A stretch of 64,000 nucleotides of DNA from Octopus vulgaris (taxonomy: Eukaryota): NCBI GenBank assembly GCA_951406725.2, contig OX597823.1:79484001-79548000 (forward strand), read 5' to 3'. Below are positions 6,521-57,912 of this stretch, in pieces. Positions within the stretch are counted from its first letter, which is position 1. Each line of letters starts with the position of its first letter. The position numbers were made by a program, and so were the translations under genes. The notes under the pieces were generated by a model. The model searched no databases. It saw only the letters and a list, made by a program, of their open reading frames with translations, and had not been told where the DNA came from.

Positions 6521-7440
6521 TAACTTAAAATAATAAGGGTGAAAAATTGAATATTGATTTGAATAAGTATCAATTTAAAACCAGTGGTCTAGTATATAGA
6601 AAAATCTGAAGATTCAGAAGAATTATATTGCATACATATAAGAAGGATGACCACTAAGTGGACATCCATTATGCTATATGTCGACCCCCTATGGTTTTAC
6701 CACTAAGAAAGGAATGTTCTCAAGAAAATTTAGCAAAAGCCAGAACATAAGCGAGCAAGACAAATGAAAAGATACAAAATATACAGATTAATCACAAACC
6801 CAGTTTCGTTGTTACCACTTACGTAGATGTCCACAACTCGTCAGTGTGATCGTCATAGCAAAATGTAATTTGAAGAACTATACACGAAACATCCACATGA
6901 GATTGAATATTTATATAGTTCTACCAATTACATTTGGGTTTTTTTTTTTCAAAAGTCTTCATTATGGCACACCAAAATACCGGAAATAATTCTGCAGAAA
7001 ATAATTCACTGCAGTGAATTTTGCCGGTTAGAGAACATAGTTATTTAGATTTAAATTTAAAATAATAAGAGTGAAAAATTGAATATTAATTTGATTAATA
7101 TCAATTTAAAACCAGTGGTCTAGCATATAGAAAAATCTGAAGATCCAGAAAAATTATATTAGGGAGAGTCTGAGAGACCCTGCGTATGGGCTACAAAGGA
7201 TGGTCGGAGTTGAAAACAGAGAGGTGGGAGAGGAAAGCAGAGAGAGAGAGGAGTAGACAGGAGGAACGGGGAAATGGTGATGGGGCTGTTAAAGATGAGG
7301 AATACGAACGCTATACAGTGAACCCTGATACTGTGGTGAGTGGACATACAAGGGAAATGAACCTTGTTTGAAAAGGTATTTGTGTTCGAATGGAAGAAAA
7401 ATGTATACTTAGTGGTCATCACTCTTATATATATGTAATA
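6521..7440 (-). mobile_element. Non-coding HHR-bearing PLE-like element, partial tandem (period ~532) with a short inverted end
   Basis: taataag(g/a)gtgaaaaattgaatatt...aattatatt at 6531 and 7063; 7409-7432 is an inverted copy of ~6635-6660; contains the HHR at 6791-6850; sits between microsatellites. Confidence 0.65.
6791..6850 (-). ncRNA. Type I hammerhead ribozyme
   Basis: Minus: atcaca CTGACGA gttgt..acaac GAAA c tgg g TT tgtgat. Stem I 6 bp, stem II 5 bp, minimal stem III, GUU cleavage triplet. Confidence 0.75.
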
Positions 7441-7745
7441 TATATATATATATATATAGCAATTAAGGACAACTACTTAATAAGGAAAACTTAACAAGAA
7501 ATTGTCAGGTAGATAGCGTGAAAACCTCATAAGAGAATAAATTTCGAAAATAATTATTTCTTATTGAACATATTAATTTATATATGGAGGGCATTATACA
7601 TACATGCCAGAGGGCATTATACATACATGCCAGAGGGCATTATACATACATGCCACACGCTAAGAGGGACAATTAGTCATTTCTACCAAAAATATTACTA
7701 ATCCCACCGAATGCAATTTTTCAAAGTAAGACATTTAAAAAATAT

Positions 7746-7793
7746 AGACCTGTATCACAGTGATTTCATACTTACGTATTCATCAGCAGGCCT
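7746..7793 (-). ncRNA. Type I hammerhead ribozyme (inverted copy)
   Basis: Exact reverse complement of 8265-8312. Confidence 0.85.
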
Positions 7794-8264
7794 GAATGTA
7801 TCATAAATAAACGACCCTGCCCCGCTTAAGTCGATCAGCTAACTGATCAACATCAACGAAGCACATGGGTGAGTTTACATATATTACATCCTGTAAATGG
7901 CATACTTTTACGAATTGCATTTCGGGAAAGGAAAATGTATAATGCCCTCTGGCATGTATGTATAATGCCCTCTATATATAAATTAATATGTTCAATAAGA
8001 AATAATTATTTTCGAAATTTATTCTCTTATGAGGTTTTCACGCTATCTACCTGACAATTTCTTGTTAAGTTTTCCTTATTAAGTAGTTGTCCTTAATTGC
8101 TAAATTTTTATTCCGAAAAAACTTTTCCTTTCCCGAAATGCAATTCGTAAAAGTATGCCATTTACAGGATGTAATATATGTAAACTCACCCATGTGCTTC
8201 GTTGATGTTGATCAGTTAGCTGATCGACTTAAGCGGGGCAGGGTCGTTTATTTATGATACATTC

Positions 8265-8312
8265 AGGCCTGCTGATGAATACGTAAGTATGAAATCACTG
8301 TGATACAGGTCT
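8265..8312 (+). ncRNA. Type I hammerhead ribozyme, intact core
   Basis: aggcctg CTGATGA atac-gtaa-gtat GAAA tca-ctg-tga TA caggtct. Stem I 7 bp, stem II 4 bp with GNRA loop, predicted cleavage after A8305. Confidence 0.88.
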
Positions 8313-8676
8313 ATATTTTTTAAATGTCTTACTTTGAAAAATTGCATTCGGTGGGATTAGTAATATTTTTGGTAGAAATGACTAATTGTCCCTCTTAGCG
8401 TGTGGCATGTATGTATAATGCCCTCTGGCATGTATGTATAATGCCCTCTATATATAAATTAATATGTTTAATAAGAAATAATTATTTTCGAAATTTATTC
8501 TCTTATGAGGTTTTCACGCTATCTACCTGACAATTTCTTGTTAAGTTTTCCTTATTAAGTAGTTGTCCTTAATTGCTATATATATATATATATATATATT
8601 AATAGCGTTCTGTCAATCGCTATACAAATCCATCATTTTTTGCTAAAATGTCTTATTGACGAGTTTCGTCTTTTTC

Positions 8677-8762
8677 ACTTTCCCGAAGAGAAGATTGCAT
8701 TGTTTATACCATTTATTCTTTTGAATAGTATCAGTGGAATTTTCGAAACATGTGTCGAAAGT
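8677..8762 (+). ncRNA. Type I hammerhead ribozyme, U4C core mutation, long loop II; in a ~200-bp element between (TA)n tracts
   Basis: actttc CCGAAGA gaagatt...aattttc GAAA catgtg TC gaaagt; near-identical to the intact copy at 22698-22783. Confidence 0.7.
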
Positions 8763-13340: not shown

Positions 13341-13456
13341 ACGGCGACGATATATGTGTGTGTGTGTGTGTGTGCGTTCGCGCGCGTATAGATAATAAAG
13401 GTGACTTATTTGCAATTACCCGGTTGCCTAGAGTTAACCCTAGGCTGCAGGGTGAG

Positions 13457-13504
13457 GGCCACTGACGAGCATTAACCAAATGCGAAATCACTGTTGATCT
13501 GGTT
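13457..13504 (+). ncRNA. Type I hammerhead ribozyme, intact core
   Basis: ggcca CTGACGA gcatt-aacca-aatgc GAAA tca-ctgt-tga TC tggtt; cleavage predicted after C13499. Confidence 0.82.
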
Positions 13505-13799
13505 ATAGCCCGGATGCTGTAGGGAGCTTGCCTCCCTCGTCAGTCATAAGATAAGTGCACTCTCGTGGCTAGAAGTTGTTTTTACTCTTATTTATAGCAA
13601 AGCTAGTGCTAACTAGTACTCTTAGACACTTTAGTGACGTCTATAGTTCTGCCATTTGCTTGTAAATTGCGAATAAGCCACATTTATTATTTATAATTTT
13701 TTTCTTTTACCATTTATGAAATCAACTTGGAATTTCTACGATGACTCTTATAAACAAACTGAGACGGCGAGCTAGCTTCACCCTAGGCAGTCGGGTAAA

Positions 13800-13847
13800 A
13801 GCCACTGACGAGCATTAATTAAATGCGATATCATTTGTGATCTGGCT
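13800..13847 (+). ncRNA. Type I hammerhead ribozyme, GAAA mutated to GATA
   Basis: agcca CTGACGA gcatt-aatta-aatgc GATA tca-tttg-tga TC tggct. Confidence 0.7.
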
Positions 13848-13948
13848 ATTCTCCACGATGCTGTAAGGAGCTTGCATCCCTTGTCAGTCAGTGGATAAGT
13901 GTTTTCTCATGGCTAAGAGTTGTTTTTATTCTTATTTCTAGCAATGTT

Positions 13949-33540: not shown

Positions 33541-34805
33541 AGCTGCTCAACCACTCAAATGTGGATGAGATCTACCTCAACTTTGCAAAGGCTTTCGACA
33601 AAGTTGATCATGAAATGATATGTCTCAAACTGTGTGATCTCGGCATAGTCGGAAAATTGGGAGAATGGTTGTATGACTTTCTGGAAGTTAGAAGTCAAGC
33701 AGTAGCAGCCAATGTGGCCACCTCCAATGACACGCAAAGAGTGAGCGGTTCTCCGCAAGGCACTGTTTTGTGACAACTACTGTTTATAATGGCCCTCTCA
33801 GATATACCCTCAGCCACACAGAGAGTCCCGATCACAAGTTATGCAGATGATACAAAAGTCTTCACAGGTGATGCAAAACCCTGAAGACGCTATGTACCAG
33901 CAACATGAGTTAGGTGAAACATGCAAATGGGCTAAGAAGACTAACATGCAGTTTAATGCTGAAATCTTCAAGCCCTATGCTATCAGCATGCAAAACTAAA
34001 TGCAATACCAATTAAATACTCTGGACCTGGAGGAATTGCAATCTCGGAGACACAGTCAGTGCGAGACCTAGGTATTTACATGAGTAATGATGAATCCTTC
34101 CATGTGCATGTTGCTAAGTTGGCAATGAAATGTAGGAGGTTGACCCGATGGATTCTTAGAAGTGTTATTACGAGAGATCAGGACACCATGATGGTCCTCT
34201 GGAGGACGTTTGTCCTAAGCCGCTTTGACTATTGCTCCCAGCTATGGTCACCTACCGGTGTAAAATTTAATTGCAGAACTTGAGGCAATCCACGCCTCGA
34301 AGCTTCACGAAGAAGATTGCCTCTATTCAGCATATAAGCTACTGGGAAAGACTCAAGAGATTAAGACTCTATCAACTGGAGTGTAGGCAGGAAAGATATG
34401 CTGTACTATATATCTGGAAGGTGGGATTTGTTCCAAACTTTGGCATTGAGAGTTACACTAACGCTAGAACAGAGCGCTACTGCATAGTGCCAAAGACTCC
34501 AACTTTGCCGTCAAAATATAGGACAAGATACTGCAGTAACCTGGCCTTTAAAGGACCACAGCTCTTCAATATCTTACCGAAGGATCTGAGAGACCTGCAT
34601 GGAGTGGATGTAGGTGTCTTGAAAACGAAACTATATCTCTGTCACGAGTCCCTGCTGAACCAACTTCACGGTAGGGAGTGCAAATGAGGGCAGCGACGTC
34701 AAACTCCCTCATGCGCCAAATGTCAAGTTCCAAAATGAATTAGTGAAGTAAAACTTATGTAGCAATGCGGTGCCCCAGTATGGCCATAGCTCGTGAAGTG
34801 AAACT
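33541..34805 (+). pseudogene. 5'-truncated CR1-group LINE (RT and C-terminal remnant, frameshifted)
   Basis: YLNFAKAFDKVDH, SGSPQGTVL, SYADDTK, DYCSQLWSP, SYWERLKRLRLY motifs with stops and frameshifts; same family as 53604-54797. Confidence 0.85.
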
Positions 34806-37149: not shown

Positions 37150-37455
37150 TTACGATGACGAGGGTTCCAGTTAATCCGATCAACGGAACAGCTTGCTTGT
37201 GAGACTAACGTGCAAGTGGCTGAGCACTCCACAGACACGCGTACCCCTTCACATACTTTTCAGGGACATTTAGCGTGACATAGAGTGTGACAAGATTGGC
37301 CCTTTGAAATACATGTAGTACTCAATTTTTACAGTTGAATGGACTGGAGCAACGTAAAATAAAGTGTCTTGCTCAAAGATACAACGCACTGCCGAGAATC
37401 GAACTCGCGACCCTTCGATTGCGAGCCGAATACCCTAACCACTAAGCCACGCTCC
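37150..37455 (-). mobile_element. Chimeric SINE: family D-like head and CORE joined to family C tail type 1
   Basis: 37330-37455 resembles the reverse complement of 4592-4715; 37150-37315 matches 16665-16830. Confidence 0.7.
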
Positions 37456-42997: not shown

Positions 42998-43079
42998 CCC
43001 CCTCCAAAGCCCAACCGTTCTCCTCACCGTGGTGCTGGGGGTGGTAACGGCATATGGTAAGTATGCTGGCTAAACGGCT
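42998..43079 (+). ncRNA. Candidate HDV-like ribozyme at the RTE 5' end
   Basis: P1 ccccc/ggggg, L3-like tcctcacc, GG-taac, P4 cggcatat-ggtaa-gtatgctg, J4/2 gctaa, P2 ccgt/acgg; P3 pairing is ambiguous. Confidence 0.5.
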
Positions 43080-46000
43080 CTGGCATGGGGAAAGACCTGG
43101 CCACCTACCCCAGTATCCTGGCCAATATACTCTATGGTGTAAGAATTCTAATATGATGGTACCAAACAGTGGGATCTCCGGGCTGCGAGATACCACATTG
43201 GCTACTGGGGAAGAGCACAAGGATAATCATAATAGCGGCAGTATTGATGACGCGGATGGGACAAATCCTTCTGGACACCTGCCTGCTGATGTAGCCACCA
43301 GTGAACTGAGATCCCTGCGCTGCACAAAAGTCACAAAAATTGGAATGTGGAACGTAAGGGGGATGAACATTGGGAAGTTGGACACCATCAAGAAGGAAAT
43401 TAATCGGTTAAACATCGATATCCTGGGAGTCAGCGAAGTTCATTGGACTGGCAATGGTTTCTTCAACTCTGGTGATCATACAATGTAATTTTCGGGCAAT
43501 AGTAAGACCAGACAACATGGAGTGGGATTTGTTCTATACAAGAAAATGTCCAAATACGTTGAAAGTTTCCAGACCATGAGTGATCGAGTGATTACCATTC
43601 ACATCAAAGCCAAACCCAACAACATCACATTGCTACAAATCTACGCGCCAACTGCCGACGCTGAAGAAGATGAGATTGAAACATTCTATGCAGAAATTCA
43701 GGGCGCAATCGAGGAAACACCACGAGCAGATGCTGTTGTGTATATTCTGGGAGATTTCAATGCCAAAATTGGAGAAATGGCAGAAGCAGACATCGTTGGC
43801 AAATTTGGATTAGGAGAACGGAATGAAGCAGGAGATCGGCTGGTCCAATTTTGTCAAGAACAACACATGCGGTTAACCAATACTTGGTTTCGGCAACCAA
43901 GAAGAAGATTATACACCTGGATATCGCCAAGTGGACAGTACCGCAATCAAATCGACAACATCCTATGTCAGCAACGGTGGAAGAGTTCAGTCCAAGTTGT
44001 GAAGACGTTCCCTGGGGCAGACTGTGGATCTGACCATGAACTTCTGGTTGCCAAGATCAAGATGCGACTCTGCAGCGTCAAGCGACCACCCGCTTACCAG
44101 AAATTTGATACCAGCAAGATCGGTCCATCATATGCCGCTGAGATCAGAAACCGCTTCGAACTGCTCACCATCGAATAGAATCAAGAAGCAGAAGAAATAT
44201 GGGAGAAGGTGAAGGAAATTGTCGTTGAAACAGCAGAGAAACATGTACTGTACAAGAAACCCATACGATCAGCAAAGTGGATTTCGGAGGAGACTATTGC
44301 AATAGCAGAAGAAAGAAGGAGAGCAAAGATGACCAGAAGCAGGGATGAAGTACGGCGCCTGAATGCAATGTTCCAACAGGCCGCCAGGAAGGACAAAGAG
44401 AAATACTGGAATGAAGAATGTGCAAGGGCAGAGGAGGCATACAGGAAAGGGAACATGAGAGAACTTTACCAACATGTAAAGAAGACCCGTACAGCATTCA
44501 CGGCCAGACAAGCAACCATCCGAGGGAGAAATAGTGAAGAACTGCATGACCAAGAAGGGATCAGGAAAATATGGAAAGAGTACACTGAACAGTTGTATGC
44601 AGGAAACGACCTCGATGAATAGGCAGAAGAGAAGCCACTGGAACTGGAACCAGACATCCTGGACGATGAGGTGGTATGGGCAATGAAACAGCTGACCAAC
44701 CGAAAAGCCCCAGGTACTGATGGTATTCCACCAGAATTACTCAAGCCAATACCAACAAAAACACTAACATCGCTTTGCCAACGAATATGGAGAACCTGTA
44801 AGTGGCCAAGGGAATGGAAGAGGTCAGTTTTCATCACAATACCAAAGAAAAGAGATACCAAGGACTGCGCAAACTACCGTACCATCACCCTGGTCCCCCC
44901 CCCCCCTGTAAGCAAAATTCTCCTTAAACACAACTATTGAGAGAGAATTGCCAGAGGTGCAAGCTGGTTTCAGAAAGGGAAGAGGCACCCGCGATCACAT
45001 CGCCAACCTACGGTGGATTATGGAAAAGGCAAGAGAATACCAAAAGAAGCTGTACATGTGTTTCATCGATTACTCCAAAGCCTTTGACAGCATTGATCAT
45101 GACAAGTTATGGAAATGTCTGGAGGAAATGGGAACACCTTTACACCTTGTCCAGCTTATTAGATCACTCTATCAAAACCAACAGGCTACAGTACGGACAC
45201 AATATGGCGACACTGATTGGTTTGAGATTGGAAAAGGCACTCGGCAAGGTTGCATCCTGTCACCAGTAGCCTTCAACACGTACGCTGAAAAGGTCATGAG
45301 GAATGCCGGCCTGGAGGATAGCAGCATTGGAGTGAGGATTGGAGGAAGAAATATTAATAACCTTCGCTATGCAGATGATACAACCCTGCAGGCGGAGAGT
45401 GGTAAGGATCTGGAGGATCTTGTCCTGCTGGTCAAGAAAGAGAGGGAGAAATTTGGGCTGTATCTCAATGTTAAGAAAACGAAGATCATGTCAACATCAG
45501 CCACAACAAACATCAGCATCAAGATCGATAATGAAGCGATTGAAGTGGTTGATGATTTCATCTTCCTTGGCTCCAAAATAAATCGAGATGGCGACTGCAC
45601 TCCAGAAATAAGACGGTGGATAGTACTAGGCAGAGAGGCAATGGTCACCATTAGCAGGGTCTGGAAGAGTAGATACATCAGACTCGCTACCAAATGCAGA
45701 TTGGTGAATGCAATTGTCTTCCCAATAGCGACATATGGACGCGAGACCTGGACACTAAAGAAAGCTGACCAGAAGAGTATTAATGCATTCGAGCTTTGGT
45801 GTTGGAGAAGACTTTTACGGATTGCATGGACAGCGAGGTTCACCAATGGAGAAGTCCTTAAGCAGATGAGGCCGAAAATGTCGCTAGAAGCTTGAATCAC
45901 CAAGCATAGATTGGCATATTTCGGTCATATTATGCGGAGAAAATCCCGGGAGAAGGACATCATGCTCGGAATGGTCAGTGGCAAGAGAGGAAGAAACCGA

Positions 46001-53603: not shown

Positions 53604-54797
53604 AAAGTCGATCATGGAATGATATGTCACAAGCTGCGTGATCTTGGCATAGTTGGAAAATTGGGAGAATGGCTTCATGACTTTTTGAAGGATAGAAGTC
53701 AGGTGGTAGTAGCCAATTAACACTTCCATTAACACGCAAATAGTGAGCGGTGTTCCGCAAGGCACTGTTCTGGGACCACTACTGTTCATAATGGCCCTCT
53801 CAGACATGCCCTCAGCCACGCAGAGAGCCACGATCACAAGTTATGCAGATGATACAAAAGTTTCACAGGCAATATAGAACCCTGAAGACACTAAGCACCT
53901 GCAATGTGAGCTGGACAAAATATACAAGTGGGCTGAAAAGAATAGCATGCAGTTCAATGCTGAAAAGTTTTAAGCTTTATACTATCAGCATGCAAAACTA
54001 AATGCAATACCCAATAAATACACTGGACCTGGAGGGATTGCAATCCCAGAGTGAGACCTGGGTATTTAAATGAGTGATGATGCTAAATTGGCAATGAAAT
54101 GTAGGCGGCTGACCGGATGGATTCTTAAAACCTTTAGAACAAGAGACCAGGAAACCATGATGGTCCTCTGGAGGACACTTGTCCTAAGCCACTTTGACTA
54201 TTGCTCTCAACTATGGTCACCATCCAGTGTCAAGTTAATCGCAGAACTTGAGGCGATCCAGCGAAGCTATACGAAGAAGATAGCCTCTGTGCAGCATATA
54301 AGCTATTGGGGAAGACTCAAGAGATTGAGACTCTATTCCTTAGAGCGTAGGCGAGAAAGATATGCCATAATATATATCTGGAAGATCCTAGAAGGACTTG
54401 TCCCAAACTTTGGCATCGAGAGTTACACAAATGCCAGAACTGGGCGCCACTGCATAGTGCCAAGGACTCCAAATTTGCCATCAAGATGTAGGACAAGATA
54501 CTGTGATAGCCTAGGCTTCCGAGGCCCACAGCTCTTCAATATCCTCCCGAAGAACCTAAGAGACCTGCATGGGGTGGATGCAGATGTCTTTAAAATGAAA
54601 CTAGATCACTTCTTGTCAGGTCTCCCAGATGAACCAACTTCACGGCAGGAGGTGCAGATGAGGGCAGCTGCATCGAACTCTCTCATGCACCAGATGGCAT
54701 TTGCTAAAAGGCATTCGTGAAGTAAAATCATGTAGCAACACCAAATGGCGGTGCCCCAGCATGACCACAGCTTGTGAGCTGAAATTTAAAAAAAAAA
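53604..54797 (+). pseudogene. 5'-truncated CR1-group LINE nested in the Penelope ORF
   Basis: KVDHG, SGVPQGTVLGPLLF, SYADDTK, LYSLERRRERYAIIYIWKILEGLVPN; 3' hairpin then A-rich tail. Confidence 0.9.
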
Positions 54798-54989
54798 TAC
54801 CAAAAACAAGACAGAAAACATAACGAAACCAAGTAAAATACCACAACCAAAACGCAAAATTCATCAAGCAAACATCAACAGGAATATAAATCATAAACAG
54901 AAAAAAATTCATTTTTTTTACGTCAGGACAACAAACGCCGGAGAAAGAAAAAATCCAAGAGGAAACATACCCAAAACAACTGAACGTAT

Positions 54990-57213
54990 AGTTCCTAAAA
55001 TAATTAATTTATCAAAAAGAGATCTTGACAATGATGAAATCCAACTTCTGTCAAAAGGACTGAAATCCACACCTCACCAACAGGCAATCACCAAGAATTA
55101 AAGGAGGATATCCAAAAATTCTGTCGAAAATTACGACTTGTAGAATTCTTTGCTAACAAAAGTAATGAGATTGATGAATCCCTAGTAAGGAATAAATCAA
55201 ATTTCACCCCACCAAAAGGAAGAAATAACTACCTTGACCAATACATTGATATCCTGTCTAAATTTCCCCTTAGACGCAATACCAATGTTAGGCCAAACAT
55301 TAACAAATCAGAGATGTCTGCTTGTAGACGTATACAAAACGATCAAACAATAATAATTAAACAAGCAGATAAAGGTGGTACAATTGTTATTATGGATACC
55401 GAATACTATAAGGATTTGGTTGAGGACCAACTGAAGGACACAACCTTCTATTGTGAAATACCCTCAAATATAGACCACCACATCATGAAAAAGATCAACA
55501 ACCTGATTTCAAAACACTACAACTCGCTTACCGATAATGAAAGAGACTACATCACCAATTTCGAACCAAAACCCAGCAACTTCTACGGCTTACCGAAAAT
55601 ACATAAATCAAAAGATATTCAACATGCAGTAAAAGAACAAGGAAGTGAGTACATAAAATTACTACATCCAAAAGACCTAAATCTTAGACCTATTATAGCT
55701 GGTCCAGCACGCCCTGCCTACCGTCTAAGCAATTTTATTGACATTGTTTTGAAACCACTATGTACTTACATACCCAGTTTCATCAGGGATGACATCGACT
55801 TCCTGTCCCATCTTCCCAAAACAACAGAAACAAATTCAGTTTTACTAAGTTTTGATGTGGTAAGTCTCTACCCCAATATTCCACACGATTTAGGAATAAA
55901 GGTGATTAAATACTGGTTAGAAAAACATAGAGAAGTGATTCCCAGCAGATTCACAGTGCCATTTATATTAGACACAGTCAAACTTATTCTAGAAAACAAC
56001 TCATTCTTCTTCAATGGAAAGAATTACATCCAAATTAGAGGCACGGCGATGGGAACGAGGTTTGCTCCCGTTTACGCCAACTCTGTAATGGGATACTTAG
56101 AACAACAACCCTACCAAGAGGTGGAGATAAACTATGGCACTGGATTTAGAAAGTATATTGAAAAGGCATGGAAGAGATACCTTGACGACTGCTTCATAAA
56201 CTGAACAGAATCTCTAAATACTCTGGAAGAGTTCAATATCCTCCTGAACAACCTACACCCATCTCTCCAATTTACAAAGGAGATGAGTAGTACCAAATTA
56301 CCATTCCTAGATATAATGGTAAATTAAAAAGGACACCACCATCACCACAGATATATACTATAAACACACAGACACACATCAATACCTGAATTTTAAGTCG
56401 TGCCATCCACCACATACAAAACGCAACATCCCATACTGCCTAGCCAGAAGAATTTGTACCATTGTAGAAGATGCAAATATCAGGAACAAACGCCTAACAG
56501 AACTAAGAGAATTTTTGCTCAAACAAAAATATCCATGTCTACTTATAGAAAATGGCATACAGCGGGCTATAAAAATACCCATACAACAACTTAGGACAAC
56601 CCAAGGAAGGGGAAAACAAGAACAAGTCATACCATTCATAGTGACACACAACCCATGTCCCCAGAATATCTTCAACATTGCCAAAGCAAACCTACCAATC
56701 ATTGCTCAAAGTAAGGAATTAAAAGATATAATCACGGATCGAGCTATGGTTCTTAGTAAAAGACAGCCTAAAAACTTGAAAAAATTACTAACAAAGGCAA
56801 AATTTGACCTTAGCAACAAAGACCAAACATTCACTGTATCTAAATGCAATGATAGCCGATGTGGCACACGCCAATTCATACATACCGGCCAATATATAGA
56901 CACAAAAACCGGGAAAATATTCACAAACGCGAATATGAACTGCAAAGGCAGAAATTTAATTTACTGCATCAAATGCCCAAATTGTGAAGAAATATATGTA
57001 GGTCAGACGGGAAATGCACTATCAGAACGCTCACGTGTACACCGACAACAGGTTAGAGACCCAGAGGTCCGTCAGATACCTTTGAGTAACCACCTAGCAA
57101 CATGTGGTCGGAAAATATTTGTAATATTTCCATTCTACAATTACACAGCCCAAGTGAAATCGAGAGGAAAATCAGAGAAAAGAATTTTATTGATAAATTC
57201 GAACCCAAGCTAA
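54990..57213 (+). pseudogene. Penelope RT + GIY-YIG endonuclease, disrupted
   Basis: INLSKRDL..E..LLSKGLK, IKQADKGG, FYGLPKIHK, RPIIA, SFDVVSLYPNIP, GTAMG, RYLDD (56178-56189), NLIYCIKCPNCEEIYVGQTG; several stops and frameshifts. Confidence 0.92.
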
Positions 57214-57544
57214 ATAAGCAATAATAATAATACTTAGAGGTACTACTTCTACTGCTACGACCATGACCACTAACAACAACAACAACAACAACAATACTAA
57301 AGGTGATCAAGATGAAGATAGCAGGAAGATTATCTTATTTAGGGTTAAAAGTTCTATTGCCACCACCATCACCACTAGCAACAATAATTAAGGTGCTGAC
57401 AATGATGATGATGACAATTGAAATATAATAATCACTGACAAAGGCTATTTACAACATTTCTAAAAATAGCCCAACAATTGCTGTCTCGCCAGGGTTAAGA
57501 TACAGGATTCTTTACATGTTCAACAAAGCGTGACGCCTAAACCA

Positions 57545-57645
57545 ACCAATCAGCTTAAGTAATTGAGTGATGCTACACACTGATTGGTCAGAATACAGTT
57601 TGCAAAACCTAGCAATCTGGAGCCCACACAGGTGTATTTAAAGCA
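57545..57645 (+). promoter_or_regulatory. Putative pLTR Pol II promoter (CCAAT, inverted CCAAT, TATA-like)
   Basis: ccaatcag, ctgattgg and tatttaaa upstream of the HHR; similar ccaatc/tataaaa layout at ~48990-49050. Confidence 0.45.
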
Positions 57646-57705
57646 CAGATTTAACCATCTCGCTACAGTCAAAAATTGTGAAGCATGACTGTCACCACTA
57701 CTACA

Positions 57706-57750
57706 TGAACCTGAAGACTGCATAATTTAATGCATGAAAGTACTAGTTCA
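57706..57750 (+). ncRNA. Minimal type I hammerhead ribozyme of the Penelope pLTR
   Basis: tgaac CTGAAGA ctgca-taatttaa-tgcat GAAA gtac TA gttca; palindromic stem III (agtact); cleavage predicted after A57745. Confidence 0.82.
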
Positions 57751-57876
57751 ATCAGAATGAATATTTAACATTCTATTATTTTATTTTATTTTATTATATT
57801 ATATTATTTTATATTATATAATTATAAGATTGTAAATAAAACGTGAAAATCAGACAAGGTTGGAATTCCTTTTATT

Positions 57877-57912
<36 letters not shown>

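Follow-up and report, generated by a model that had tools for sequence, protein, structure and literature searches.

How can a 476-nt repeat that encodes no protein come to lie in a TA microsatellite as more than one tandem copy joined to an inverted copy of itself? This question is raised by a locus at positions 7457-8578 of the window, the 64,000-nucleotide stretch of Octopus vulgaris DNA that we analyzed. The original prediction had described it as 1.35 tandem copies of a 476-nt monomer plus a head-to-head inverted copy, an architecture that alignment bears out. With the plus-strand sequence 8103-8578 taken as the monomer (476 nt, numbered M1 to M476), the plus arm consists of a partial copy of M309-476 (7935-8102; 99.4% identity to M, a single substitution) that abuts the full monomer without a gap, giving 644 nt or 1.35 units. 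The inverted arm (7457-7935, 479 nt) corresponds to minus-strand M21-476 according to blastn and alignment and deviates from the full copy by one additional repeat unit and two substitutions. The predicted near-perfect inverted copy of about 480 bp, with an internal repeat present three versus two times, is thus correct with respect to the copy and the counts, but the repeat unit is 23 bp long and not 22 bp (three copies at 7587-7655 in the inverted arm, two at 8403-8449 in the plus arm), and M1-20 is missing. The arms join 5' end to 5' end with an overlap of 1 nt, and both 3' ends point outward into (TA)n tracts, one about 18 nt and the other about 20 nt long. The two 2-kb bins containing the locus have a GC content of 0.30-0.38. 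The claimed absence of a coding sequence also stands, since the longest ATG frame on either strand of a doubled monomer comprises 42 amino acids and the longest stop-free stretch 56. The insertion is one recent copy of a protein-free repeat with a predicted self-cutting hammerhead motif. Its features are as follows:

7426..7456, no strand: left (TA)n target run (sequence)
7457..7935, minus: inverted arm, M21-476, with its site-B 3' end facing the left (TA)n run (blastn, alignment)
7586..7655, minus: three 23-nt repeats; in addition, the first base of site A (7586) is changed from T to C, a change found in 1 of 135 units (unit comparison)
7746..7793, minus: inverted-arm copy of the type I hammerhead motif, with cleavage predicted at 7753/7752 (identical to plus copy; motif scan)
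7935..8102, plus: 5'-truncated partial unit M309-476, starting at the inversion junction with a 1-nt overlap (alignment)
8103..8578, plus: full 476-nt monomer, ORF-less, 3' end at site B (alignment)
8265..8312, plus: type I hammerhead motif of the plus arm (sequence, folds, conservation)
8403..8449, plus: two 23-nt repeats, predicted hairpin immediately 5' of site A (sequence, fold)
8449..8465, plus: site A (TATATATAAAT..), second of the family's fixed 3' ends, unused at this locus (family ends)
8572..8578, plus: site B (..TTGCTA; 0-9 nt of the next unit are added in other copies), the first fixed 3' end (family ends)
8579..8599, no strand: right (TA)n target run (sequence)

Hammerhead motif and predicted RNA folds

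Both arms had been predicted to carry a hammerhead core, with cleavage of the plus-arm copy at 8305/8306. The core CUGAUGA..GAAA..UA is indeed present at 8272-8305, and the motif of the inverted arm is identical. It comprises a stem I of 7 bp (8265-8271/8306-8312), the first core segment (8272-8278), a 4-bp stem II (AUAC/GUAU; 8279-8290), the GAAA segment (8291-8294) and a palindromic stem III (8294-8304). Pair 10.1-11.1 is A-U instead of the usual G-C, and G-U in 17 of 77 loci of the repeat family described below. Rfam did not call a hammerhead family at the window locus, neither at the gathering score nor at E<=10. Folded on its own, a single motif has its core mispaired in the minimum-energy structure; a predicted two-molecule fold (-32.7) restores both catalytic cores through the palindromic stem III, a mode of dimeric folding described for metazoan type I hammerheads (PMC4209133). 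The core is near-invariant across 76-78 family loci, a figure to be read with the fact that 60 of the 80 loci examined were selected through the core-bearing region. Each tandem repeat unit of the family carries the type I motif, with core and three stems present in the sequence. The partial upstream unit of the window locus lacks it, and the retrozyme hallmark of successive hammerhead-bearing units is accordingly absent here and found at other loci, for instance L003, L052 and L101. Hammerhead cleavage of the monomer RNA is thus a prediction from the motif and its modeled folds.

A circularized monomer is predicted to fold at -132 kcal/mol, compared with -89 +/- 6 for 60 shuffled sequences and -96 for the antisense strand. 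In this structure, which was predicted from one family member, shared transitions at paired sites keep the pairing in 12 of 14 cases (p 0.018); no fully compensatory pair change was found. Linear permutations of the monomer fold at -130 to -140, none of them much better than the others, so that folding does not single out the cut-to-cut monomer. A possible pseudoknot (CCTC/GAGG with TAGCGTG/CACGCTA) was noticed by eye.

The repeat family and its two 3' ends

The 27-nt hammerhead core has 119 exact matches in the 2.8-Gb genome and a 20-mer near the 3' end of the monomer has 586, while reversed control sequences have none. The units are 476-481 nt long, ORF-less and arranged head to tail, with up to 32 in a row and hundreds overall. 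We examined 80 loci, mostly with flanks of 1-1.5 kb: 21 derived from 30 loci of one genome search after overlaps had been merged, 40 chiefly from among the 119 core matches (the first 100) together with the remaining matches of the first genome search, and 19 from the first 100 of the 586 20-mer matches, which fall on contigs C1-C2 only. The family is young, ORF-less, equipped with a type I hammerhead motif and inserted in (TA)n.

By script, 59 of the 80 loci were called two-armed. Across the 80 loci, 3' ends cluster at two sites separated by about 120 nt: site A (M354-363) follows the repeat hairpin, and site B spans M473 through M9 of the following unit; we defined the A class broadly (M320-385) so that it includes units with a single repeat. 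Nearly all A and B ends run into a (TA)n-type flank, and no target duplication is discernible at these (TA)n insertions. One end remained unclassified in 10 of the 59 two-armed loci. The 49 loci with both ends classed comprise 48 A/B combinations, one B/B and no A/A (binomial p 1.8e-13 against independent use of the sites), and the subset selected through the hammerhead region gave 37 A/B pairs in 38 loci. The suggestion that both strands of a cut (TA)n site prime synthesis is consistent with this pairing, and we hold two-site, two-strand priming with good confidence. The expectation of varied start points on one circle, on the other hand, failed: the starts of reverse transcription, represented by the 3' ends, lie at two fixed sites, and only the 5' stops vary.

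The window locus is the sole B/B case among these 49 loci and hence atypical of its family. Its left arm alone among 135 units has C for T at the first base of site A, and it is one of eight units in 135 with three 23-nt repeats. Given that 3 of the 135 units belong to the window locus, the odds of B/B use coinciding there with the site-A change are near 2%, a coincidence that is suggestive only. Most likely, the locus is a rare variant in which the left arm began at site B, or in which a B-primed piece was joined out of register to an A-primed arm.

Throughout the unit, 5' ends occur at scattered positions; of 129 such ends, 4 are found no more than 10 nt from the predicted cut site, where 5.7 would be expected. 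Most inversion junctions overlap by 1-6 nt. About a quarter of the loci have one arm, in many cases flanked by (TA)n on either side (including L003, L023, L042, L046, L054, L055, L061, L103 and L115). Two of these, L054 and L061, start at M347, the TA-like start of site A, which suggests joining by TA microhomology.

An older relative of the family, with a 497-nt unit and about 70% similarity, displays, as judged by eye, the same layout and two ends in 30 loci (L142-L171); its hammerhead has a longer stem II, there is one repeat hairpin, and another motif count gave 568 matches. Other partial tandems occur within the window itself. One at 6522-7160 (period about 532 nt, 93% over 108 nt) has a minus-strand hammerhead-like motif at 6844 and likely represents a second retrozyme family. 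Another at 13434-13944 (period about 343 nt, 80% over 168 nt) ends in (TA)n; its hammerhead motif lies at 13462, and a second, decayed motif near 13807.

Probable template, candidate mobilizing enzyme and proposed mechanism

What template gave rise to these arms? Divergence amounts to 0.57% within an arm, 0.57% between the arms of one locus and 2.8% between loci. At 21 sites, 41 haplotypes were distinguished, and the units of one insertion share a haplotype. Locus-private alleles were found on both arms in 18 cases versus one arm in 50; among rare alleles, 33 occur in every unit that covers the site at a locus, and 93 in only part of these units. These 93 partial alleles, together with gain or loss of the 23-nt repeat in 13 of 135 units, mean that the arrays are not perfectly clonal. 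Since a mutation in one unit cannot otherwise reach all daughter units, we infer a single-unit stage followed by repeated copying. The shared haplotypes and the 105 of 129 arms that cross the predicted cut site favor one monomer copied repeatedly, probably a circle. Neither 5' stops nor scars cluster at the predicted cut site, where no recurrent addition or loss of bases was found across the family copies; a ligated circle therefore fits best, and we lean with moderate confidence toward a single monomer or circle as the template. The window locus by itself cannot separate a circle from a chain of units, while the family favors a monomer bottleneck that is best explained, though unproven, by a circle. 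From the original proposal of reverse transcription around a circular or tandem RNA, the copying of an ORF-less monomer beyond unit length (74 of 129 arms) therefore stands, and the choice between the two templates lies beyond this one locus.

The same two-site priming could use an uncut linear multimer transcribed from homogeneous arrays, in which case the hammerhead would be incidental and the circle unneeded. Long near-identical arrays able to template any observed arm do exist: the array L101-L102 (C1:64.64-64.66 Mb) is one two-armed insertion whose A arm measures 511 nt, while its B arm extends over 15 kb and holds 32 units that diverge by 0.09%. Certain variants reappear at intervals along this array, and since such repeated variants suggest later local expansion, we do not accept it as proof of rolling-circle copying. 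Unprocessed RNA is also the dominant in vitro substrate of a Penelope-like protein (PMC11167929), and arms copied from a multimer would equally be let across the cut site. However, the 41 locus-wide haplotypes and the 33 fixed rare alleles would then require a single-unit bottleneck with subsequent re-multimerization, and unit-specific variant patterns never recur in order across loci; variants at M148/150 in L069 and L070, a candidate for a heterogeneous multimer template, proved to be an alignment artefact. The near-invariance of the hammerhead core, qualified by the way in which the loci were selected, also speaks against an incidental motif. Collectively, we regard the uncut multimer as unlikely.

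Still less probable is a cut linear monomer on which the reverse transcriptase jumps from the 5' end to the 3' end of the same or a sister molecule and thereby produces tandems without ligation. Jumping would yield the same monomer bottleneck and clonal arrays, and the repeat slippage noted above shows that the copying step can slip, but at the cut site 5' stops are not enriched (4 versus 5.7 expected) and bases are not recurrently gained or lost.

Contigs from four putative RNA runs cover parts of the unit, but as assembled contigs they are blind to strand, ends and circles and do not enter into the argument here. Three of them span both the cut site and the junction between units and show 5-12 differences to the window locus. 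Another repeat in the right flank of the insertion (8610-8750) shows high contig depth in all four runs. One contig, from a differently labeled organism, has 8 A>G changes within 50 nt (window 8045-8095), where 79 loci read A; at two of these positions G is also present in 1-2 loci. ADAR editing of a fold-back RNA is a possible cause of these changes. As a source of the genomic variation, ADAR editing was rejected, given that the rare alleles comprise 14 A>G versus 25 T>C changes.

The enzyme that would copy the preferred template, a single and probably circular monomer, likely comes from an intact Penelope-like element of the same genome. A young Hydra-type family (L219-L238) has a 3,624-nt unit with an intact 899-aa RT/GIY-YIG-like ORF, and in 16 of its 17 loci the identity to the reference unit is 98-100%. 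Its 3' ends lie in (TA)n at two sites about 160 nt apart, which are paired in all ten classifiable two-armed loci (of the others, one has an unclassified end, one is incompletely covered and five are single-armed), and it forms tandems of near-identical units, up to 3.5 units long. In an older Hydra-type subfamily, the ends are paired in nine of ten cases. Inspection by eye for the diagnostic features of the Hydra clade (PMC8557442) revealed in the 899- and 896-aa ORFs of the Hydra-type elements RW and DKT motifs and CxxC/CxH, with RW followed by L and not K; no CCHH was seen and a CxCX5C linker was not identified. The elements also have a hammerhead and a (TA)n target. The 896-aa ORF has no Pfam match to RT or GIY-YIG, and the placement of these elements in the Hydra clade is a putative one made by motifs.

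The common two-end footprint makes the Hydra-type element the best mobilizer candidate, and on balance we think that a Hydra-clade enzyme mobilizes the retrozyme. A 781-aa Penelope family with Pfam RVT_1 and GIY-YIG matches, which we take to be Neptune-like by its motifs, was considered as well and is disfavored because it has a single 3' end in 17 of 17 loci, although a two-armed locus was seen there just once. No homology of the monomer to coding elements was detected, whether among 90 GIY-YIG loci or in the unit of the young Hydra-type family, these being the best-scoring candidates of each genome search; further mobilizer families may be unseen for that reason. Blastn and nhmmer comparisons of the monomer with the young Hydra-type unit gave nothing useful, and a gappy alignment to the Hydra-type 3' region that beat 500 shuffles was rejected, as it misaligned the hammerheads. 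Within the window, a broken coding Penelope-like element (about 54850-57880) combines RT and GIY-YIG-like frames (55038-56204, 56323-57213) with a (TA)n end and a hammerhead-like motif located near 57710; it is without similarity to the monomer. Broken LINE-type endonuclease/RT frames were recognized by eye in translations at 43048-45895, 34271-34687 and 54070-54720, and a weak tRNA-like match (37391-37450, minus strand; 30.6 bits) is possibly the head of a SINE.

Could the copies instead be 5'-truncated pLTR ends of an unseen coding Penelope-like element and not an independent RNA? The layout matches that of Penelope insertions (PMC8557442), and the 80 loci with their short flanks were taken from several hundred matches. 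Yet full units follow one another head to tail without an intervening ORF, and no RT/GIY-YIG endonuclease ORF lies in, or is continuous with, a unit in the 80 loci. Penelope protein matches occur in six of them, all in the flanks and none continuous with the 5' side of a unit. The original prediction had named copies attached to a coding element at a fixed pLTR boundary as evidence that would overturn it; no copy in such a position was found in the 80 loci. A similarity match beside a GIY-YIG fragment at L078/L141 was rejected as a pLTR, since it is a separate insertion of a related repeat family. We therefore consider pLTR ends very improbable. The family is very probably a retrozyme mobilized by Penelope-like elements. 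Equally improbable is an origin of the palindrome as an assembly artefact or by later DNA fold-back repair: later conversion between arms could have produced the sole B/B locus, but 59 of 80 loci are two-armed with differing junctions and asymmetric ends, and the window arms differ by two substitutions and a repeat unit, unlike a mirror artefact.

Taken together, we regard it as likely that a non-coding hammerhead repeat is copied into TA microsatellites by a Penelope-like, probably Hydra-clade, enzyme that primes both DNA ends on a single-unit, probably circular RNA. A tandem copy would be transcribed; its hammerheads, probably acting as dimers via the palindromic stem III, would free a cut-to-cut monomer that is then ligated. 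A dimeric RT-endonuclease would cut both strands of a (TA)n run, one cDNA would begin at A and the other at B, and each would travel round the template for a variable length before both cDNAs meet in the middle and their ends are joined, in most cases through overlaps of 1-6 nt. More tentatively, and with less than even confidence, a Hydra-type dimer may hold the circular ribozyme RNA asymmetrically, presenting A to one cut strand and B to the other and rolling from both. If true, this arrangement would jointly account for three features of Penelope insertions, namely pseudo-LTR tandems, an inverted arm and a tail on one side, and the B/B locus of the window would be a natural exception marking sequence needed for A/B assignment.

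Comparison with known systems

The class of element and its two-armed layout are already known. A partial tandem with an inverted 5'-truncated copy is the textbook Penelope-like insertion, with a tail that is "often only at one end" (PMC8557442), and the layout with a one-ended tail is also given by Schostak et al., 2008 (PMC2377424). Circular templates have been proposed (PMC4209133, PMC7229834), as has, across these sources and a recent study (10.64898/2026.07.22.740005), their combination with a Penelope mobilizer for retrozymes. The Anolis Poseidon protein PAc cuts and extends both strands and starts at two internal RNA sites (PMC11167929). With layout, two start sites, circle templates and Penelope mobilizer all published, the octopus element belongs to a known class.

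Animal non-LTR retrozymes (Cervera and de la Pena, 2020, PMC7229834; Li, Clavereau and Pollet, 2026) are alike in their AT-rich, ORF-less tandem units with one type I hammerhead each, and are likewise dispersed as monomers to multimers for which a circular template and a Penelope-like mobilizer are proposed. The unit is 476-481 nt here, versus 170-400 nt (PMC7229834) and 51-972 bp (10.64898/2026.07.22.740005) in the published sets. Inverted arms or paired ends are not described in the accessible text of these papers, and the word "inverted" has no occurrence in the main text of PMC7229834. In Xenopus, 24 of 57 retrozyme families matched repeats, nearly all of them Penelope-like (10.64898/2026.07.22.740005), whereas no local pLTR homology was found here. 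RNA expression, cleavage and circles are reported for published retrozymes, while the octopus family is known from genomic sequence and predicted folds.

Endonuclease-bearing Penelope-like elements (Craig et al., 2021, PMC8557442; PMC2377424) have the same upstream 5'-truncated tandem, inverted copy, one-ended tail and (TA)n targets. The retrozyme family differs from them in having no RT/endonuclease ORF, and in its tail (A to B) of about 120 nt compared with the published 30-40 bp. The tail is one-ended in 48 of 49 of its loci as against the "often" of the published description (PMC8557442), with the window locus as the exception. PAc (Frangieh et al., 2024, PMC11167929) likewise combines two internal start sites that define a tail, extension of both strands, AT-rich targets and a dimer that is a structure prediction. 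Its start sites are adjacent and show no strand difference in vitro, whereas the arms of the retrozyme almost always use different sites. Hammerhead mutants left in vitro insertion by PAc unaffected, with unprocessed RNA as the main template, so that insertion was independent of hammerhead cleavage (PMC11167929). For the Hydra clade, (TA)n targeting and canonical hammerheads are reported (PMC8557442; Hydra-1_Obim, File S1). The local 899-aa Hydra-type family shares the paired two-end rule and the tandems of identical units with the retrozyme, without detectable common sequence. In L1 twin priming, both DNA ends prime on the RNA and the inversion is joined at short overlaps, as in the retrozyme arms; L1, however, uses its poly(A) end and a variable internal site and forms no more-than-unit tandems, unlike the retrozyme family.

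The near-strict A/B pairing, the tail of about 120 nt and the Hydra link were not found in the literature searched. This search proceeded largely without subscription papers and returned nothing on the family, the paired-end rule or a Hydra-retrozyme link, which does not establish their absence from print. The origin of the tandem and inverted copies of Penelope and the identity of the enzyme that mobilizes retrozymes are stated to be open questions (PMC8557442, 10.64898/2026.07.22.740005). The octopus family offers a short, young 476-nt template with two mapped start sites and near-strict pairing, an intact candidate enzyme, and data that point to a single-unit bottleneck. With compact template, mapped sites and candidate enzyme in one genome, the circle and two-site models become directly testable in vitro, and the family thus provides a compact test system for the tandem, inverted and one-tailed insertions made by Penelope-type enzymes.
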